From IMG/VR virus record IMGVR_UViG_3300005253_000523, positions 5,091 to 69,090 of that record: a stretch of DNA of 64,000 nt, one strand, 5' to 3'. The notes under the pieces were generated by a model. The model was not told where the DNA came from. It saw only the letters and a list, made by a program, of their open reading frames with translations, and searched no databases. How positions within the stretch are numbered: the first letter of the stretch is position 1; each line of letters opens with the position of its first letter. Source of the DNA: a virus. A program made the position numbers and the translations under genes. This document shows, piece by piece, positions 2,652 through 10,004 of the stretch.

Positions 2652-5015
2652 TCAATCCTCACGCAATTTCACGCGCCGCGCGAAACCACCCATGGAGAAG
2701 CCACGGAACTCTCCGCTCTTGATCTTCTTCCAGATCGACTTGTCGAGCACGTGATACATCACCAACCACGATCCCTTCTTAACTTTCTGTCCACCGATGG
2801 TCAAATTTATGGGTGCGATGTAGCTCTCGAAGATCTCGACGACGCTGTTCACGTTCTTCCGATGCATCAGCCCACGGTTCTGGAACCTGGCCAGCCAACC
2901 ATGCGCTGCCCTCTCGATGGTCACAGGCTTGACGGTATCCTCGTGTGCGTCGACCTCGTCCGGTTCGAGCACAATGCCAAGGACGATGTGCTTGTCCTCC
3001 TCGGCCTTGTCGATCGGAAGCATTCTGATCGTGTGACCATCAACGTCCTCGCGCTTCTCGGTCAGGATCACATCGGCCGGATCGATGCTGCCCTTCTCGA
3101 TTGCTGCCAACCTGGCGAGTTGCGTGGCTGGAGGCGCCGGTCCATTGCGTTGCTGCTCAGGCTTCCCCTGATCGGCCCAGAACTCACCGGGCATGATGCT
3201 GGTGAGTGACTTGCCGTCGAGCTTCAAGCCGTGTGAATGGATCCCGTCGAATGCGGACGACATCACCTGCAGCTCGTGATCGTGACCACCGCCACCTTCG
3301 GTGGTCGTGAATTCCTCTTCGTTGATCAGAACCTTGTGGACGTGCAGACCACTATCTGGAATCGTCTCGTTCGCAGTCGGCCGCGACATCGTGTGTTCGT
3401 GCTCGCCGTCTTCCTCGGTCACGACGCGCGTGCCATCAGCCAGAACGAATAAGTGAATGTGACGACCGTCGTTCTGGGTCTTCTTCGCTTCACGGATCAG
3501 GTTGTGAACGTGGACACCAGCCTCGGGCACCTGGTTCGGGAACCCCTTCAAGATTTTTTCCATGCTGCTGATCTTGATCAGCCTGCGCTCCTTGCTTGGC
3601 ACGAGCGCGAGATCGAACAGCGGCATGTGATCACGGGTCGGTCTTGCCGATGCCTCGTGGAAGTGAACACGGCCACGGTGTTCCTCTGGTACCGATTCCT
3701 GCACGAACGATTCGATGAGTTCTCGCGTCGCCGGATCGACGGGACCGTTGATGAGAATGCCGGCCGCGTCGACGACGATTGCGTTCGATCGCAAGACCAT
3801 CGAATGTCCGAGGCTCTTGAGTAGCTCCTCCATCTTCGCGACGCGCTTGATGTTTTCACAGCGGCCAGTGCGTGAGTTGTAGCGTTTCCCGGGCGGACAC
3901 TTCGGTTGGATCTGCGCTGGCAACTTGCGACCACCAGGATCCAGCGACGGCGACGTGATCGTGTGCGACGCCTTGTTCTCCTTCGGTCGTCCGATGACTG
4001 CCTTCACGCCAGGCGCCAAGGTGATCGTCCGGAAAGATCCAGTCTGAAAATCCCCTGGATTCCGTTGCCGGAACCGGAAGCTGTTCGGCTTCTCGTCGAC
4101 ACCCTTGCCGTCGAATGTCGTTTTGAAATCGTTGTCCTTCAGCCACTGCCGCGCCTGCGCCAGCGAGAACTTCTCCTTGTCGAAAATGATCGTCTGGACT
4201 TCGGTGCTCGTGGGCTCCTGCTTGGCGACTCGCTTCGTCGCAAAGTTGCTGATCACGAAGGTCTTGTATGCCTTGTAGTTCCCACGACCATCGGGAACGG
4301 AATGTGAGATCGCCTGGGTCTTGAAGTTTGATGGACCGGCGACGTCGTACGTGACGATGAACTTACTCTTCACGGTCTTGAGGAAGTTCCAGAACCCGTC
4401 GTGGTCGAACTTCTTCTCGCCGACGTTCTGATCGGTCTTCACGTACGGTGGGTCCAGGAAGAACATCGTCGCCGGCCCGTCGAACTGCTTCATGACCTTG
4501 CGATAATCAGACGAAAATACCTTGACGCCCTTGAGCCGCTCCTTGGCCTTCTCCAACCGATCCGGAACGGTGACGGTGGTACCGATCGCCGTGCGATCGA
4601 TTCCGCCCTTCGGATTGCGCATGAAACCCATCCGTCGTGTCATCACTAACTTGTAGAAGCGCGTGATCTTTGTAGTCGGCGTGGACTTCTTCAACTGATT
4701 GAAGAGTTGCTCGGTCGCCTTCCAGCTCATCCGTTTCAGCGCAGCGAATTCGGCCGGCGTCATGTCACGGATGAACTTGAACGCCTCGGCGATGTCGGTG
4801 TCGAGATCGTTCAAGACCTCCGTCTCGACCTTGGTCTTGGCCCAGAACACAGCGGCACCACCAGCGAACGCTTCGACGTACGACTTGTGTTCCGGGAACA
4901 GCGGGATCAGACGACCAGCCAGTCGCGACTTTCCTGCCGGCGATCCGAAGACCTGGGCACCGACGCGCTTCATCAGCTCGATGGCGTCAGGCGGAAGATC
5001 GTGCGGAGCGTTCAT
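2652..5015 (-). CDS. Polyprotein: Dam/D12-class N6-adenine methyltransferase + unknown domain + His-rich repeats + XkdF-like prohead serine protease
   Basis: GSPAGKSRLA, YVEAFAGGAAVF, LNDLD, FLDPPY (Dam); GxHxH x6; IVLGIVLEPDEVDAH...GLMH...IFESYIAP...KKGSW...IWKKIKSGEFRGFSMGG (XkdF). Start 5015 overlaps the MuF stop (ATGA). Confidence 0.85.
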   Translation of the reverse strand: MNAPHDLPPDAIELMKRVGAQVFGSPAGKSRLAGRLIPLFPEHKSYVEAFAGGAAVFWAKTKVETEVLNDLDTDIAEAFKFIRDMTPAEFAALKRMSWKATEQLFNQLKKSTPTTKITRFYKLVMTRRMGFMRNPKGGIDRTAIGTTVTVPDRLEKAKERLKGVKVFSSDYRKVMKQFDGPATMFFLDPPYVKTDQNVGEKKFDHDGFWNFLKTVKSKFIVTYDVAGPSNFKTQAISHSVPDGRGNYKAYKTFVISNFATKRVAKQEPTSTEVQTIIFDKEKFSLAQARQWLKDNDFKTTFDGKGVDEKPNSFRFRQRNPGDFQTGSFRTITLAPGVKAVIGRPKENKASHTITSPSLDPGGRKLPAQIQPKCPPGKRYNSRTGRCENIKRVAKMEELLKSLGHSMVLRSNAIVVDAAGILINGPVDPATRELIESFVQESVPEEHRGRVHFHEASARPTRDHMPLFDLALVPSKERRLIKISSMEKILKGFPNQVPEAGVHVHNLIREAKKTQNDGRHIHLFVLADGTRVVTEEDGEHEHTMSRPTANETIPDSGLHVHKVLINEEEFTTTEGGGGHDHELQVMSSAFDGIHSHGLKLDGKSLTSIMPGEFWADQGKPEQQRNGPAPPATQLARLAAIEKGSIDPADVILTEKREDVDGHTIRMLPIDKAEEDKHIVLGIVLEPDEVDAHEDTVKPVTIERAAHGWLARFQNRGLMHRKNVNSVVEIFESYIAPINLTIGGQKVKKGSWLVMYHVLDKSIWKKIKSGEFRGFSMGGFARRVKLRED

Positions 5016-7165
5016 GGTCCGAAAGATAGTACCACCGGCTCGGTACGGCACAGCGGATGGAACGGTGGCAGGACTGCCCCGGCCTCGATCAGACGATCGG
5101 TAGCGTCTCCACTTCCCTTATCAGCACCGTCCAGTGCTTCCTCAATCGCAGGGCCAGAGATCCACGGTTGGATCTGTCGAATTTGTTCAGGATTCTTCGC
5201 GTCGAGGAAACGATCGATGTGCTTGCCAGCAGTCTCGACCGTGAATGTCTGACCAACCATTTGCTGGCAGTTGTGTACTACGACATCAGCAACGATGTAC
5301 GTAGGATCATCTCCCTCAATCTCCAGGTTATAGCAAGGCAGGGCCAGCTTGATCGGTTCAAGACGTAGGGGAATCCAACCAATCAGGCAGTCTGTTTCAA
5401 CTTGCGACGCGTCCGTACACCAGCGAGCGCCATGATCAGGGTACGAGTAATGGCTTTGATCGGATCCCTTTTTAGATCGGCCTCTCGGATCCTCACAGCG
5501 ATCCAGCCGTTGCGAATGATGGCTTCCTGTTTTGATTGGCTTATGACCCGCCCTTTTGTGGTGTGCCAATATATTCCATCCACCTCCAAGGCTATCGAAC
5601 CAAGAATCAAGAAATCCACGGATCCATTTCCCGCTTGTACTTCCGCCTCGTATCGCAGACCGAGATATTTCAGGGTCTCCTCGACGGCCAACTCCGGATA
5701 GGTCGCCGCCGTACTTCGGCAGTAGCACGCCTTCGAACAGTAACGCTTGTTCAGCCCTTTGAATTCCCCGCCGCAATGCTGGCACAGTCGTGCTTGAGAA
5801 TATGTCGCACATTTTCGCGAACAGTGTTCTCTTCGTTTTTGCAATAAAACCTCGACGGGCTTCAACCTGAATCTCTTGCTGCACCGCTTGCACCGAGTCC
5901 AGAGCGCTTCCGGTGGCAAACCTTTCCTTCCGGCCTTTCTGCGACATGCCAATGAACAGTGTCTCCAACTGCCTCTGAGGACTTCCGCTCTGCGCCTCTC
6001 GATGACCTTTCCGCAGTGTTCGCAGGCCGTCGTTAACCAGTAAATCTTTTTTTTGTGGCGATATTGGCACTCCCGACCGCAATACTTCTTCCTGTAGTAT
6101 CTGGACGGATGCGTTCGTATCGCTGCCCCGCAACCTACGCACTCTAACGAAATCGGCATCTGTTATCTCCCGAGCCGCCACCCAACCCCTAGCAGTCAGG
6201 ATTTCGTGCTCTGGAGTGATCATAAATCGATGACCGAACGAATTACAGACAAACCAGTCCTCGTTCACCCGTCGTTTTGAAACAGCCTGCACACGCCGCT
6301 TGAATCCGTGCCCTGTCAGGATTTCTGTACCAGGCGTCACGTCTTCGATCGGCAGCTTGCCTCCACTACCCAGGGTCACAAGAGACCCTGGCGCAAAACA
6401 TATCTGTCCAGTACGATCGTCATTGGGATTGGTCAGGCGATAGGTTATGACTCCGCCCTTCTGGAAGCCTTCGATCTTCGAGAAGGTCCGTCCCTGCTGG
6501 GCGGCCACGCTGGAGAGCTGCCGGAAGTAGAGTTCGGGATTGCCGGCGTACTGCGCGGGAATCGTCGGCGCGAATGAAGTGACACCACCAGGCACCAGAC
6601 CGAACTCACGACCGAGCACCGGACCCAGCTCTGCCGACGCCGCCCGGAAGCTCAGTCCCTGGTTGAGGATCACGTCCTCGGTCACGCCAGCGATACGCCG
6701 GCTGAGTTGCTCGCTGTAGAAGTCGCCGACCCAGAACACGTGATGGCGTCGGATCGCCTTGACGGTGCGCGTACTGCGCAATGAGAAGCTGAGCTGAACG
6801 CGCGCTTCACGCTGGGTCAGCTTCAACGTCCGAGAGTAGATCCGCTTCACCAGACCCTCGGTGATCACCTTCTGTGGATTGGTCATCGGCGATGCCAATG
6901 GCGCCGCCAGACGTTTCAAGAACGATGACATCGCCTTGCGAGAACTGTTCCCCGCCTTGCGATACGCGACCAGGCTGCCGGCGAGCGAACCACGTGCGGC
7001 ACGCTTCCAGGATCGGTTGGTGAGTTCGGTGAGCTGCTTCTCCGTCTTGATCGTCATGCGACGGATGTTCGACTCCGCCTTCAATATCGCAGCCAGTGTG
7101 CTCTCAACTTCTTCCGACAACTCCATGAGCGTCGGTGTCGTGAGAGCGTCTAGATCAATCCTCAT
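5012..7165 (-). CDS. MuF-like minor head morphogenesis protein interrupted by an intein
   Basis: DDRTGQI|C and LPPFHPLCRT MuF motifs; located between portal and protease. Confidence 0.85.
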   Translation of the reverse strand: MRIDLDALTTPTLMELSEEVESTLAAILKAESNIRRMTIKTEKQLTELTNRSWKRAARGSLAGSLVAYRKAGNSSRKAMSSFLKRLAAPLASPMTNPQKVITEGLVKRIYSRTLKLTQREARVQLSFSLRSTRTVKAIRRHHVFWVGDFYSEQLSRRIAGVTEDVILNQGLSFRAASAELGPVLGREFGLVPGGVTSFAPTIPAQYAGNPELYFRQLSSVAAQQGRTFSKIEGFQKGGVITYRLTNPNDDRTGQICFAPGSLVTLGSGGKLPIEDVTPGTEILTGHGFKRRVQAVSKRRVNEDWFVCNSFGHRFMITPEHEILTARGWVAAREITDADFVRVRRLRGSDTNASVQILQEEVLRSGVPISPQKKDLLVNDGLRTLRKGHREAQSGSPQRQLETLFIGMSQKGRKERFATGSALDSVQAVQQEIQVEARRGFIAKTKRTLFAKMCDIFSSTTVPALRRGIQRAEQALLFEGVLLPKYGGDLSGVGRRGDPEISRSAIRGGSTSGKWIRGFLDSWFDSLGGGWNILAHHKRAGHKPIKTGSHHSQRLDRCEDPRGRSKKGSDQSHYSYPDHGARWCTDASQVETDCLIGWIPLRLEPIKLALPCYNLEIEGDDPTYIVADVVVHNCQQMVGQTFTVETAGKHIDRFLDAKNPEQIRQIQPWISGPAIEEALDGADKGSGDATDRLIEAGAVLPPFHPLCRTEPVVLSFGP
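5270..6400 (-). mobile_element. Intein in MuF (377 aa) lacking an in-frame endonuclease
   Basis: Block A CFAPGSLVTL, block B ITPEHEILTARGW, blocks F/G CYNLEIE...VVHN|C. Confidence 0.9.
5383..6159 (-). CDS. Zn-finger + DUF559/Vsr-like endonuclease nested in the +1 frame of the MuF intein
   Basis: Four CxxC...C(S/G)xxC ribbons; PE...VDFL...ALEVDGIYWH...GWIAVRIRE; SD GGGAG 7 nt before ATG. Confidence 0.85.
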   Translation of the reverse strand: MPISLECVGCGAAIRTHPSRYYRKKYCGRECQYRHKKKIYWLTTACEHCGKVIERRRAEVLRGSWRHCSLACRRKAGRKGLPPEALWTRCKRCSKRFRLKPVEVLLQKRREHCSRKCATYSQARLCQHCGGEFKGLNKRYCSKACYCRSTAATYPELAVEETLKYLGLRYEAEVQAGNGSVDFLILGSIALEVDGIYWHTTKGRVISQSKQEAIIRNGWIAVRIREADLKRDPIKAITRTLIMALAGVRTRRKLKQTA

Positions 7166-10004
7166 TGTCGTCGAAGCGTTTCAGAATCTGCTGGTCGACT
7201 GACTTACGGAAGTTCTGCAGTTTCTCGATCATATCCTCAGCGATTTCTTCGGCGATCGTTTCACCATTCGGAACATCACCGGAAAGAATCTTGTCGACTT
7301 CGGCCTGGCTCGTTTTTGCGCCGACCTGAGCGAGCGCGAACTGCAACGAGTACGGCACATCGAGCTCGATGCCCTTGGGCTCCGGTCCGAAGTCTTCGCC
7401 GAACACATCCTTGCCGATGTTGTCTGCTCTGCGTGGTGTCATACCACCAGACTTCTCAAGGATGTTTGCCATCTTCACTAGGATCTCGTCGTCGGTGATA
7501 TTCGGGTGCATCGACTTGAACGCATGGAATCGAGCCTTCCATCGGGTCATCACGAATCGATTGAACAACTCGTCGTCGTCAGCACGGTCAGGACCGAAGA
7601 CCTGCTCGTCGCCGACGCGCTTCGAGACGGCTGCCGTCGAACGGTTGTAGTCTTCGGAGTTACCCGAGATCAGGACGCGGCCATTTCGACGAGTGACCAG
7701 CATGCCATTGGGCACCGTGAAGCAGGACACCTTACCCTTGTACGGGACACGTGAAATCTGTTTCTTTTGCAACAGATGACGCTGATCACGATGACCGTTG
7801 CTTACCCAGATTGTCGACCATCCCTCTTCACTACGATCTACCTGACGAGTGGTGAGCGCAATACCAAGACGAACACAAATCTCGTGGAGCTGATCGTTCA
7901 ATAACTTCGAAGTCGTACCGTATGTGAATGATCCTTCGCTACCCATCGCGGGACGACTACCATCGCCATCGATCATTGCATCGAGTAATACCTGAAGCTG
8001 ATCGGCCTCAACGCCGAGAACCCAACGAGGCAGACATTTATTCTTGGCGCCATGACCGCAACTATCACGGAGCCATCGCCACATCCCAACGTGACAGGCG
8101 CTGATATTCAACTGACCGGGATGCGATTCGCAGACCCCTACTTTGAAACTCATCTCCTTAAGAGTCCGGATCATGTCATCCGCAACTTCACCAACATTTT
8201 GAGACAGGTTGAATGGACCAGGCGTTTCGGTCGTACTCCCCTCGCTGACAAAATAACCAAGGAACTTTAAGAATGTCGTGCCGTCGACGTTCCAACCTTC
8301 GCGATCCTCATAGCGTTCTAGATCGCGGGTAGGATTTTTGCTCGGCTTATCAGGATGCCAGGTATTATTCGGATCGTTTCGCGGTACCTCGAAGGCTTCG
8401 TAATAGCGACCGCGCCAAGATGCCGAGACAGGGATTTCCAAACAACCACCACCATTGCCACCACGAACATTCTGAAGATCACCGGCTTCACAAAATCTCC
8501 ACGGGCGCTCAGGCCAAGCACTAGCAGCCGTTGGTCGCGTCCACATTCGATGGTTCGGCGTGACCAGTGCATCAATGCCACGGTTCTTCAAGTGAATCAG
8601 TTCGCCGTCATAGTCGTACTGATGGCGGGCAGTCGGGACTTGATACTCAACTTCTCCGGTCGCAGCGTTGTAGGTTGCAAGAGCCTGCTGCGAACTAATC
8701 TCGTCGTACTTCTGCCAACCACGGTCGGTCAAATACTCCGTATCGGATGAGCTACAACGCCCCACGAAGATCGGCGGCAGGCGGAAGCTCTGGCGGATCT
8801 TGTCGCGGTTGTTCTTGTCGTACTCCAACCACAGCTCGTCCCTCTGCTGGTGTGGCTTGGTCGGCTCGATCCGAATCTTGAACGCAGTCGGATTCGGATT
8901 GCCCTCATCCATCGGCTCACCTTCGAGGATGATCATCGAGCTGTAATTTGCCTCCTGTTGCAGCGACTCGATGAACTCAGTTACGCGCTTAACGCTACCA
9001 TCGGTGAGCGTTCCGTTCTCGACGATGAGAAATAACGACGGGACTGCGTTGTTAGACAGCGTGTTGAAGTTCAGCTCCTGCGCCTTGCGACTGCCGAAGA
9101 ACTCGAAGATCGCTCCAATCCATTCGGGAACGCCGTAAGAAGAGTGCGGCGAATAGATTTTGTGATGGAGAACGCTGGTGGCGCGCATCGGAAACTCGAT
9201 TGGTTTTTCATTCGTGCCGTATTCACCGGTCGTGAAGTCGAGATCCCGTGGATCGCCCGCCTCCTTGAAGAATCGGATCCTCTCCGCGCGGATCTGAACG
9301 TAACGCCGAAAGCGCGAGAGCATCTTGACATTGCCGATCGTCAGATCCTCATTGATCACTGGCACGTCGATGACAACTGGATCACGCTCCAGAGAAGTCA
9401 TGCGAACCGTATGCGCATGGATGTGACCGAGTCCAACGAGTTCGCGGTTGGGTGCATCGATCAGTTCCATGTAGCCATTGCCCGTCTGGACCTTGTCGTG
9501 CTTGATGCGCGCACGGATCTCTGTGAGAGACAGCTTCGGATGGACCGCCGATAGTCGAGTACTCAGCCGGGCCTTCTCCGTGTTGATCTCGGTCTCGAAT
9601 TTCGATCGGATCTTCTCGTTGCGCAGGAGCATCGACTCCTTCAATCGGTGGCCGAACTTCACAGTGTTCGTGACCATCGTGCGAATGTTCTGGCCCAGCT
9701 CGTTGCTGTTATCCATGGCCAGCGCGAGGAAACTCAAGTCGTAGGGTGGATCGATGACGGTGGCGCGGCCTTCGATCTTCGTGTGAAAGAGATCGTCCTC
9801 CTCACTCGATGCGTGGCCAAGACTGCGTCCGCCTTCCGGAACCTGCGGCAGCCCATCCTGCTTCTCGATCTTCCGCAGTCCCTCACGAGGACTGATGATC
9901 GTCGCCCTGAGAACCTGATGGTGGCGCTTGCCAGACTTGTCGACGACTTCGACTGGCAGTGTGCGGACGGTTTCGGCGGTAGCGTCTTTGGCCATGTCAC
10001 CCAC
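7155..10004 (-). CDS. Portal protein (PBSX/XkdE type) with intein
   Basis: TGNGYMELI, YSPHSSYGVPEWIGA, NNAVPSLFLIV, IRQSFRLPPIFVG|SEDYNRSTA. Confidence 0.9.
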   Translation of the reverse strand: MGDMAKDATAETVRTLPVEVVDKSGKRHHQVLRATIISPREGLRKIEKQDGLPQVPEGGRSLGHASSEEDDLFHTKIEGRATVIDPPYDLSFLALAMDNSNELGQNIRTMVTNTVKFGHRLKESMLLRNEKIRSKFETEINTEKARLSTRLSAVHPKLSLTEIRARIKHDKVQTGNGYMELIDAPNRELVGLGHIHAHTVRMTSLERDPVVIDVPVINEDLTIGNVKMLSRFRRYVQIRAERIRFFKEAGDPRDLDFTTGEYGTNEKPIEFPMRATSVLHHKIYSPHSSYGVPEWIGAIFEFFGSRKAQELNFNTLSNNAVPSLFLIVENGTLTDGSVKRVTEFIESLQQEANYSSMIILEGEPMDEGNPNPTAFKIRIEPTKPHQQRDELWLEYDKNNRDKIRQSFRLPPIFVGRCSSSDTEYLTDRGWQKYDEISSQQALATYNAATGEVEYQVPTARHQYDYDGELIHLKNRGIDALVTPNHRMWTRPTAASAWPERPWRFCEAGDLQNVRGGNGGGCLEIPVSASWRGRYYEAFEVPRNDPNNTWHPDKPSKNPTRDLERYEDREGWNVDGTTFLKFLGYFVSEGSTTETPGPFNLSQNVGEVADDMIRTLKEMSFKVGVCESHPGQLNISACHVGMWRWLRDSCGHGAKNKCLPRWVLGVEADQLQVLLDAMIDGDGSRPAMGSEGSFTYGTTSKLLNDQLHEICVRLGIALTTRQVDRSEEGWSTIWVSNGHRDQRHLLQKKQISRVPYKGKVSCFTVPNGMLVTRRNGRVLISGNSEDYNRSTAAVSKRVGDEQVFGPDRADDDELFNRFVMTRWKARFHAFKSMHPNITDDEILVKMANILEKSGGMTPRRADNIGKDVFGEDFGPEPKGIELDVPYSLQFALAQVGAKTSQAEVDKILSGDVPNGETIAEEIAEDMIEKLQNFRKSVDQQILKRFDDNED
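7659..8756 (-). mobile_element. Intein in portal (366 aa) with in-frame LAGLIDADG homing endonuclease
   Basis: CSSSDTEYLTDRGW, VTPNHRMW, FLGYFVSEGS and LDAMIDGDGS motifs, VSCFTVPNG...ISGN|S. Confidence 0.9.

Follow-up and report, generated by a model that had tools for sequence, protein, structure and literature searches.

The window considered here is a 64,000-nucleotide stretch of a virus record in IMG/VR (IMGVR_UViG_3300005253_000523, positions 5,091 to 69,090), and our subject is a minor head protein gene on its minus strand that contains an intein, together with a second gene, nested over the middle of that intein in the +1 frame, that encodes a putative homing endonuclease (Table 1). 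The precursor open reading frame (ORF) is uninterrupted, and its intein carries all of the class-1 splicing residues, from which splicing itself is predicted. The intein starts CFAPGS, has TPEH as its block B and ends YNLEIEGDDPTYIVADVVVHN ahead of a Cys, and both the extent and the splicing motifs assigned to it in an initial annotation of the window are borne out. Its position-1 nucleophile, Cys256 of the precursor, is kept in the related alleles of the metagenome contig L011 and the proteins P0006 and P0007; the TxxH of block B reads TPSH, TPDH or TPNH in relatives; and the C-terminal junction, VVHN/C, places His-Asn before a +1 Cys that is native to the intein-free alleles showing the site motif (30 of the 32 homolog rows examined, P0025 and L026 being without the motif).

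Within the precursor, Pfam recognized Vint (PF14623) at 28.6-29.2 bits against a cutoff of 27, over the N-terminal part only (intein residues 1-81), while the remaining Hint families stayed below their cutoffs. Past this N-terminal Hint part, nothing in Pfam matched the ~260-residue middle of the intein frame, which the initial annotation had likewise described as having no recognizable domain and which we refer to as the shadow peptide. The intein frame is nonetheless without any stop over all 377 codons. The N-terminal splicing region is 48% identical to that of L011 and shows an ordinary codon-position pattern. A class-3 intein signature was also considered, in the form of a WCT triplet in the shadow peptide ~55 residues before the HN, and was rejected; the triplet is absent from L011.

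The nested ORF is offset by 1006 nucleotides (nt) from the precursor start, which places it in the +1 frame, and that frame is bounded by stops just before and just after it. The GGGAG motif that the initial annotation placed upstream is present, running from 6171 to 6167 ahead of the nested ATG, and would be suited to act as a Shine-Dalgarno sequence. The same annotation described the product as four Zn ribbons followed by a DUF559/Vsr-like nuclease, a description that is upheld by Pfam matches beneath the gathering scores and by profile and fold matches to PDB entry 3R3P, the nuclease domain of I-Bth0305I. Specifically, Pfam returned MTES_1575 (expectation value, E=2.1e-7) and Vsr (E=3.7e-4), a two-sequence profile of the nested protein matched 3R3P with E=2.5e-4, and phrog_1271 matched residues 4-80 with E=1.4e-12. 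An AlphaFold model built from 11 relatives has a mean predicted local distance difference test score (pLDDT) of 82.2 and renders the Zn modules as strand-strand-helix units. Its top fold match in Foldseek is again 3R3P, with a template modelling score of 0.71-0.73 on the target, a probability of 1.00 and E=2.2e-3, the superposition having a root-mean-square deviation of 3.2-3.4 over 96 columns; the next best match is Vsr 1CW0. Ala residues appear in the 3R3P alignment because the crystal is that of a D196A/H213A mutant.

T153, E156, Y197, W198 and H199 are invariant in the 11 relatives and D182, E192 and D194 nearly so, and of the EDxHD residues E156, D182, D194 (x) and H199 are present. All 16 Cys of the four C-x2-C...C-x3-C modules are invariant between the nested protein and its nearest relative, P0001, a protein of 258 amino acids (aa) with about 52-53% identity. 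Further relatives include several free-standing Zn-ribbon/DUF559 proteins, and free-standing relatives are found in 17 Mycobacterium phage records, where they show ~26% identity over 90-97% of the length and some are annotated as endonucleases. Another relative, on the 1482-base metagenome contig L012 (49% identity over residues 65-199), has its coding sequence divided between two frames; it is either a frameshifted or decaying free-standing gene or a sequencing error.

Table 1. Coordinates of the precursor gene, its intein and the nested gene in the window
Feature	Position	Strand	Remarks
Precursor ORF, gp7/MuF-family minor head protein including the intein	5012..7165	(-)	717 aa
N-extein	6401..7165	(-)	255 aa, ending ...NPNDDRTGQI
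Class-1 intein, aa 256-632 of the precursor	5270..6400	(-)	377 aa, CFAPGS...TPEH...VVHN
N-terminal splicing region, blocks A and B, before the overlap	6160..6400	(-)	intein frame only; Vint/Hint matches
Shadow part of the intein frame, ~aa 337-594 of the precursor	5383..6156	(-)	stop-free, no recognizable domain or confident fold
C-terminal splicing region, blocks F and G, past the nested stop codon	5270..5382	(-)	66% identity to L011
C-extein	5012..5269	(-)	85 aa and stop; starts CQQMVGQTF, family motif LPPFHPLCRTE at end
Nested +1-frame gene, putative homing endonuclease	5383..6159	(-)	258 aa and stop
GGGAG Shine-Dalgarno-like motif	6167..6171	(-)	7 nt before the nested ATG; sequence read directly, function predicted
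Four Zn-ribbon (CxxC...CxxxC) modules, nested aa 7-145	5725..6141	(-)	presumed DNA-binding array
Vsr/EDxHD-like nuclease domain, nested aa 149-240	5440..5715	(-)	PE...VDF...EVDGIYWH

Selection on the two frames of the overlap

With the nested ORF taken as fixed, the intein frame can acquire a stop only through a T-ending nested codon whose next neighbour begins with AA, AG or GA. The nested gene has 42 T-ending codons among its 258 and 64 at-risk codons, and the two coincide nowhere (0 coincidences, hypergeometric P=1.8e-6); in 20,000 codon-order shuffles and 20,000 synonymous shuffles the frame did not stay open once. The third frame holds 21 stops across the intein region, and 13 in the stop count made for the nested ORF. 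The intein frame is selected against stops. The initial annotation had reached the same view from a uniform base composition, and the present estimate is both stronger and better conditioned.

Between the window and L011, the nested protein is 52% identical as against 34% for the shadow peptide, and the mismatch by nested codon position in the overlap is 0.40/0.33/0.61, the same pattern that is seen in the exteins and the splicing blocks, each in its own frame. Protein-level selection in the overlap therefore appears to act on the nested frame, with the intein frame mainly kept open, a reading that comes from one pair of sequences and from codon-position mismatch, not from a formal ratio of nonsynonymous to synonymous substitution rates. 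The exception lies in the first ~15 codons past the nested start (nested MPI...), where both frames are conserved; the intein-frame stretches at this point, ITDADFVRVRRLRGS and VTDADQVRVHQLRGS, are identical at 11 of 15 positions by hand count on the alignment, and it is only here that the amino-acid sequence of the intein frame looks constrained. The initial claim that both frames are under selection thus holds for the nested protein and, with respect to stops, for the intein frame, and has to be qualified for the intein-frame amino acids of the overlap.

We believe that a +1 offset is tolerated because host-frame stops all depend on a nested NNT codon, for which the synonymous NNC is always available. 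We infer that the nested protein pays nothing to keep the host frame open. Should the coding arrangements of this nuclease family described below share ancestry, a code-based rule would be suggested as well, in which +1 is favoured via synonymous NNT-to-NNC change; it would predict which overlaps persist.

Recurrence of the layout

The same arrangement was found elsewhere. A metagenome scan located P0001 on L011, a contig of 15,891 bases that has a homologous head-protein ORF, a 378-aa intein at the same site, a nuclease gene in +1 and an open intein frame. In addition, viral contigs scanned with a profile of the nuclease, made from a 5-row alignment, yielded 80 loci that a simple heuristic script, without one-by-one check, classed as free-standing (54/80, some of them with long extensions), antisense inside a longer open frame (18/80), sense-nested in a longer ORF (6/80) or possibly in frame (2/80). 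The sense-nested loci (L036, which is the L011 contig, L037, L038, L039, L040 and L053) are all in +1 and never in +2 (6/6). Since L040 is a near-duplicate of L039, they amount to five distinct DNA loci besides the window, with the same +1 offset at 51-66% G+C content (GC). The hosts of these five were read and are gp7/MuF-like, with the extein motifs present and the intein at the same motif. A check of the homologs for stops in the intein frame, on which the initial annotation depended, found the frame open in every one of them, with stop avoidance at P=1.3e-4 in L011/L036 (64% GC), 7e-10 in L037, 2e-6 in L038, 1e-4 in L039 and 1e-6 in L053. Conserved layout, open frame and the substitution pattern of the nested frame thus agree with what had initially been proposed, namely a contiguous intein, a separate overlapping endonuclease gene and a passenger middle.

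Two further proteins, P0006 (719 aa) and P0007 (752 aa), have an intein at the same site with no in-frame domain. Viral-contig scans for their DNA returned only intein-free or distant relatives, and their shadow peptides were examined by degenerate back-translation, asking whether DNA encoding them could also be read, in some other frame, as the nuclease. Scores in +1 were 291 for P0006 and 237 for P0007, as compared with at most 61 for the other frames and a maximum of 85 among 36 shuffles, and positive controls behaved as expected. A blastn search of 5000-7200 against named phages returned nothing, and a whole-protein search at near lengths returned the window's own protein only.

The antisense loci fall into two groups. 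Ten of the 18 have an HN/C end at the DxRT/C...HN/CxxC site of MuF-like proteins; these antisense nuclease loci in MuF-like inteins (L041-L046, L050, L051, L054 and L055) seem to correspond to the antisense VSR-like type that Gosselin et al. describe (bioRxiv 10.1101/2025.01.02.630785). The remaining eight lack the HN/C signature and may be chance open frames. Inteins with an in-frame DUF559/Vsr-like endonuclease were observed as well, at L006:2766-5561 and L101:494-3253, both above the Pfam thresholds for DUF559 and Hint; L006 has a single Zn ribbon, and L101 has two inteins in one protein. With sense +1 genes at 6 of the 80 loci, antisense genes at at least 10 of the 80, and in-frame genes at L006 and, at other sites, L101, a single Zn-ribbon/Vsr-like family may have colonized the same gp7/MuF intein site in three arrangements, forming a capture-to-fusion series if ancestry is shared. 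We offer this tentatively, as a possibility that is more apt to fail than to hold. Were the ancestry shared, the series would show the capture of free-standing endonucleases by mini-inteins and their later fusion in frame.

A second intein site (site B) exists in the same protein family, inside the C-terminal PPFHxxC/RTE motif of P0009 and P0018. The inteins at this site, ~370 aa in length, have no in-frame domain, and no signal emerged when five alternative frames were scored for the window's nuclease (at most 67, the null maximum being 85); another kind of out-of-frame gene may lie concealed in them.

Host gene, mobility and competing explanations

The initial annotation named the host protein MuF, a name that holds only at the level of the family. 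The window's own extein halves match no Pfam family, and their sole PHROG match is phrog_13868 (function unknown), on the C-extein. "MuF-like" is probably right at the family level because the homologs match TIGR01641 (SPP1 gp7 minor capsid) and the gene follows the portal gene. All 10 of the intein-free homologs tested match TIGR01641 across the insertion site, with E from 6e-11 to 5.5e-5, one of the ten scoring above the curated cutoff, and PF04233 (Mu F) is found below threshold in 8 of 20 homologs. The precursor ORF lies directly downstream of the portal gene (7155-10004, minus strand), which overlaps the precursor start. The portal protein (949 aa, Phage_portal at residues 144-421) carries an intein of its own, a canonical one with LAGLIDADG_3 in frame and above cutoff at residues 673-741; adjacent head genes in one phage thus hold one canonical and one non-canonical intein. 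Members of the gp7/MuF-like family often have C-terminal extensions that run several hundred residues past PPxHxxCR (L037, L038, L053, P0008, P0014 and P0020), and in those of P0014 and P0020 an HExxH-like motif can be seen by eye (HEAGHAVD and HETGHAVD).

Searched against 1.84 billion representatives, the N-extein had 294 matches at E<=0.001, and intein-free proteins ~330-350 aa in length are among the best of these. In a phylogeny built from 33 N-exteins, the intein alleles at the window's site (site A), four in number, require four changes, all of them forced by well-supported branches: P0006 pairs with the intein-free L020 (support 100), P0007 pairs with the intein-free L021 (97), and L011 groups (100) with alleles that are either intein-free or of site B. 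Such scattering of the intein alleles fits mobility, with repeated gain through homing, or else many losses.

Overall, we believe, with a probability of about three in four, that the window holds a mobile intein in an SPP1 gp7/MuF-family gene and that its homing endonuclease is a separate gene lying over the intein middle in +1. Ribosomes on the late head mRNA would read through the overlap and so connect the halves of the splicing domain by a structureless linker, and protein splicing would then remove the intein together with this linker, restoring the conserved motif DxRTxxx-CxxMxGQ. A 29-kDa nuclease would come from other ribosomes, which initiate within the gene at the nested ATG and its GGGAG. 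In a mixed infection the nuclease would cut intein-free alleles at this same motif, and repair would copy the intein in. The arrangement would most likely have originated when a free-standing phage endonuclease gene of the nested nuclease's family invaded a mini-intein. A shared transcript is the simplest assumption, because no promoter-like site was found in 4900-7400; the terminator-like sites there (3 versus 2.2 expected) are uninformative.

At the same time, a number of observations weigh against this account. Separate translation, splicing and cleavage are all predictions from sequence. The Pfam matches of the nested protein all lie below the gathering scores, the curated scores for Vsr, DUF559 or MTES_1575 being unreached (31.3 bits versus 38.2, and 20.7 versus 27), and the Foldseek E-values for its model exceed 0.001. 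Where I-Bth0305I has Asp222, the fifth EDxHD residue, the window and P0001 both have Ser207, and the catalytic site may therefore be altered. The promoter scan gave 0 sites where 0.9 were expected. Neither the nested start nor the Shine-Dalgarno position is conserved among the other loci, where candidate starts with purine-rich upstream motifs are found at varying positions. One contig from an independent study, at depth 2, has a C>T change at 6157, by which the nested ATG start becomes ATA and an intein Ala becomes Thr; either an error or loss of the endonuclease from this allele could account for it. The extension of the +1 layout to P0006 and P0007 is indirect, coming from proteins and not from DNA, and the extein tree, made with a quick search, leaves 15 of its 30 inner branches unresolved. 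Finally, the model of the precursor has pLDDT <50 at residues 318-381, 388-412 and 414-607, with 55-87 in the flanking splicing parts (10-residue blocks), and this low confidence of the shadow part is weak evidence because the model is poor overall (mean pLDDT 51.6) and few alignment rows (4 of 13) cover the intein.

Some of these points are shared by the alternative that survives best, which we consider unlikely: the nested gene would be a relic that was once a homing endonuclease and is now unexpressed or inactive, with the intein inherited vertically and its frame open since the head protein is needed. Such a relic would accommodate the Ser in place of the fifth EDxHD residue, the possible ATG>ATA start variant in one low-depth contig, and the about equal divergence of inteins and exteins among the four alleles, in which no recent transfer is visible. 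It sits poorly with a nested ORF that is intact in five distinct DNA loci as well as the window, with the retention of 16/16 Zn-ligand Cys at 52% identity to P0001 and a coding-type codon-position pattern in the nested frame, and with the scatter of intein alleles among intein-free ones.

A split ("fractured") gene, in which two polypeptides are joined by trans-splicing and a free-standing endonuclease gene lies between them, is far less probable still. The same Vsr-like nuclease family has been reported in fractured genes (Dassa et al. 2009), and the nested gene does have its own start and stop, but the host gene is unbroken, with zero intein-frame stops in 377 codons, the openness of the frame greatly exceeds chance, both in the window and in five relatives, and a restart signal is unnecessary. 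Least credible is the notion that the nuclease truly belongs to the intein frame by way of compensating sequencing errors or programmed ribosomal frameshifts in and out: although an A8 run lies inside the overlap (coding strand, 6048-6055; translated as HKKK by the nested gene and as QKK by the intein) and in-frame versions of the nuclease family exist in other inteins such as L006 and L101, contigs of 4 runs (3 samples, 2 studies; the source sample is possibly among these runs) are free of insertions and deletions in the parts of 5000-7200 that they cover, three of them crossing the A8 run, the +1 offset is identical in the five other loci across their range of GC, and stops close the nested frame on both sides. 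Compensating indels, a concern attached to the initial annotation, are accordingly absent from these contigs, and frameshifting at the A8 run was rejected, as the run is not conserved in L011, where P0001 reads LRKTYW.

Comparison with known systems

A mobile intein with a separately encoded, overlapping endonuclease, the reading that we favour, would contribute a well-supported, conserved example to a kind of intein that is rare and only lately described, one whose splicing domain and mobility gene occupy common DNA in different reading frames. The case is useful in that a strong stop-avoidance signal is repeated in six independent sequences, the host is a structural protein and not a DNA enzyme, and related genes show the same nuclease family in four settings (free-standing, antisense, out of frame and in frame). 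These three features make the model in which a free-standing endonuclease invades a mini-intein directly testable. There is also a consequence for annotation: gene callers report the long ORF only and miss the nuclease, and intein surveys score "no endonuclease".

The window intein is a member of this known, rare kind, and the "distinct class of mobile intein" announced in the initial annotation cannot be maintained, since inteins with out-of-frame or antisense endonucleases are described by Gosselin et al. 2025 and Phillips et al. 2026. In the ShiLan-type insertions of phage methylases, which hide HNH endonucleases (Arsenault et al. 2025, PMC11855218), an out-of-frame endonuclease gene likewise lies in an insertion with a stop-free host frame; those have no splicing domain, whereas the window has the full set of intein blocks. 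I-Bth0305I, the prototype EDxHD homing endonuclease (Taylor et al. 2011, PMC3239194; PDB 3R3P), is the best sequence and fold match of the nested C-terminal domain and shares with it the E, D, x and H, but it belongs to a group I intron and binds DNA through NUMOD/helix-turn-helix elements, where the nested protein has Zn ribbons and a Ser for the last Asp. In fractured genes, the Vsr-like family is found between split intein halves (Dassa et al. 2009, PMC2677866). These resemble the window in the nuclease superfamily, in a gene with its own start and stop between intein halves and in their occurrence mostly in phages; the host there consists of two ORFs joined by trans-splicing, unlike the stop-free host frame of the window.

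Another parallel is the cyanobacterial dnaX intein of Phillips, DeSimone & Gogarten (bioRxiv 10.64898/2026.09.14.751524), who report a LAGLIDADG ORF in +2, apply FUBAR in a test of selection on both frames and trace the idea of an out-of-frame endonuclease to Gorbalenya 1998. The two have in common an overlapping endonuclease on the same strand, purifying selection in the endonuclease frame, an intein frame with relaxed constraint on its protein and a sporadic distribution. They differ in that the dnaX intein combines LAGLIDADG, +2 and a cellular replication gene, whereas the window combines a Vsr-like nuclease, +1 and a phage structural gene.

A further comparison is provided by Gosselin, Arsenault & Gogarten (bioRxiv 10.1101/2025.01.02.630785), who describe actinobacteriophage inteins whose endonuclease genes lie out of frame or antisense, and who distinguish a LAGLIDADG and a VSR-like type on the antisense strand from an endonuclease VII-like type in frame 3; they state that minor capsid inteins (IPR006528, gp7-type) are "exclusively" non-canonical, and that VSR-like endonucleases had previously been associated with inteins only in split inteins. 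Like the window intein, theirs have an in-frame middle with no recognizable fold, and the origin that they propose is invasion by a free-standing phage endonuclease. In the accessible portion of that preprint the VSR-like genes are antisense only, and the sole sense out-of-frame type is the endonuclease VII-like one in frame 3, whereas the window has a sense +1 VSR/EDxHD-like gene with four Zn ribbons, in uncultivated phages of sediment metagenomes. A search of the full-text literature, which did not extend to preprint supplements listing inteins, found no paper on a sense +1 Vsr/EDxHD-like Zn-ribbon gene in a gp7/MuF intein. As far as these sources go, then, the new element is the combination: a Vsr/EDxHD-like Zn-ribbon gene in sense +1 orientation that uncultivated phages carry inside a gp7/MuF intein and that has been conserved across deep divergence.

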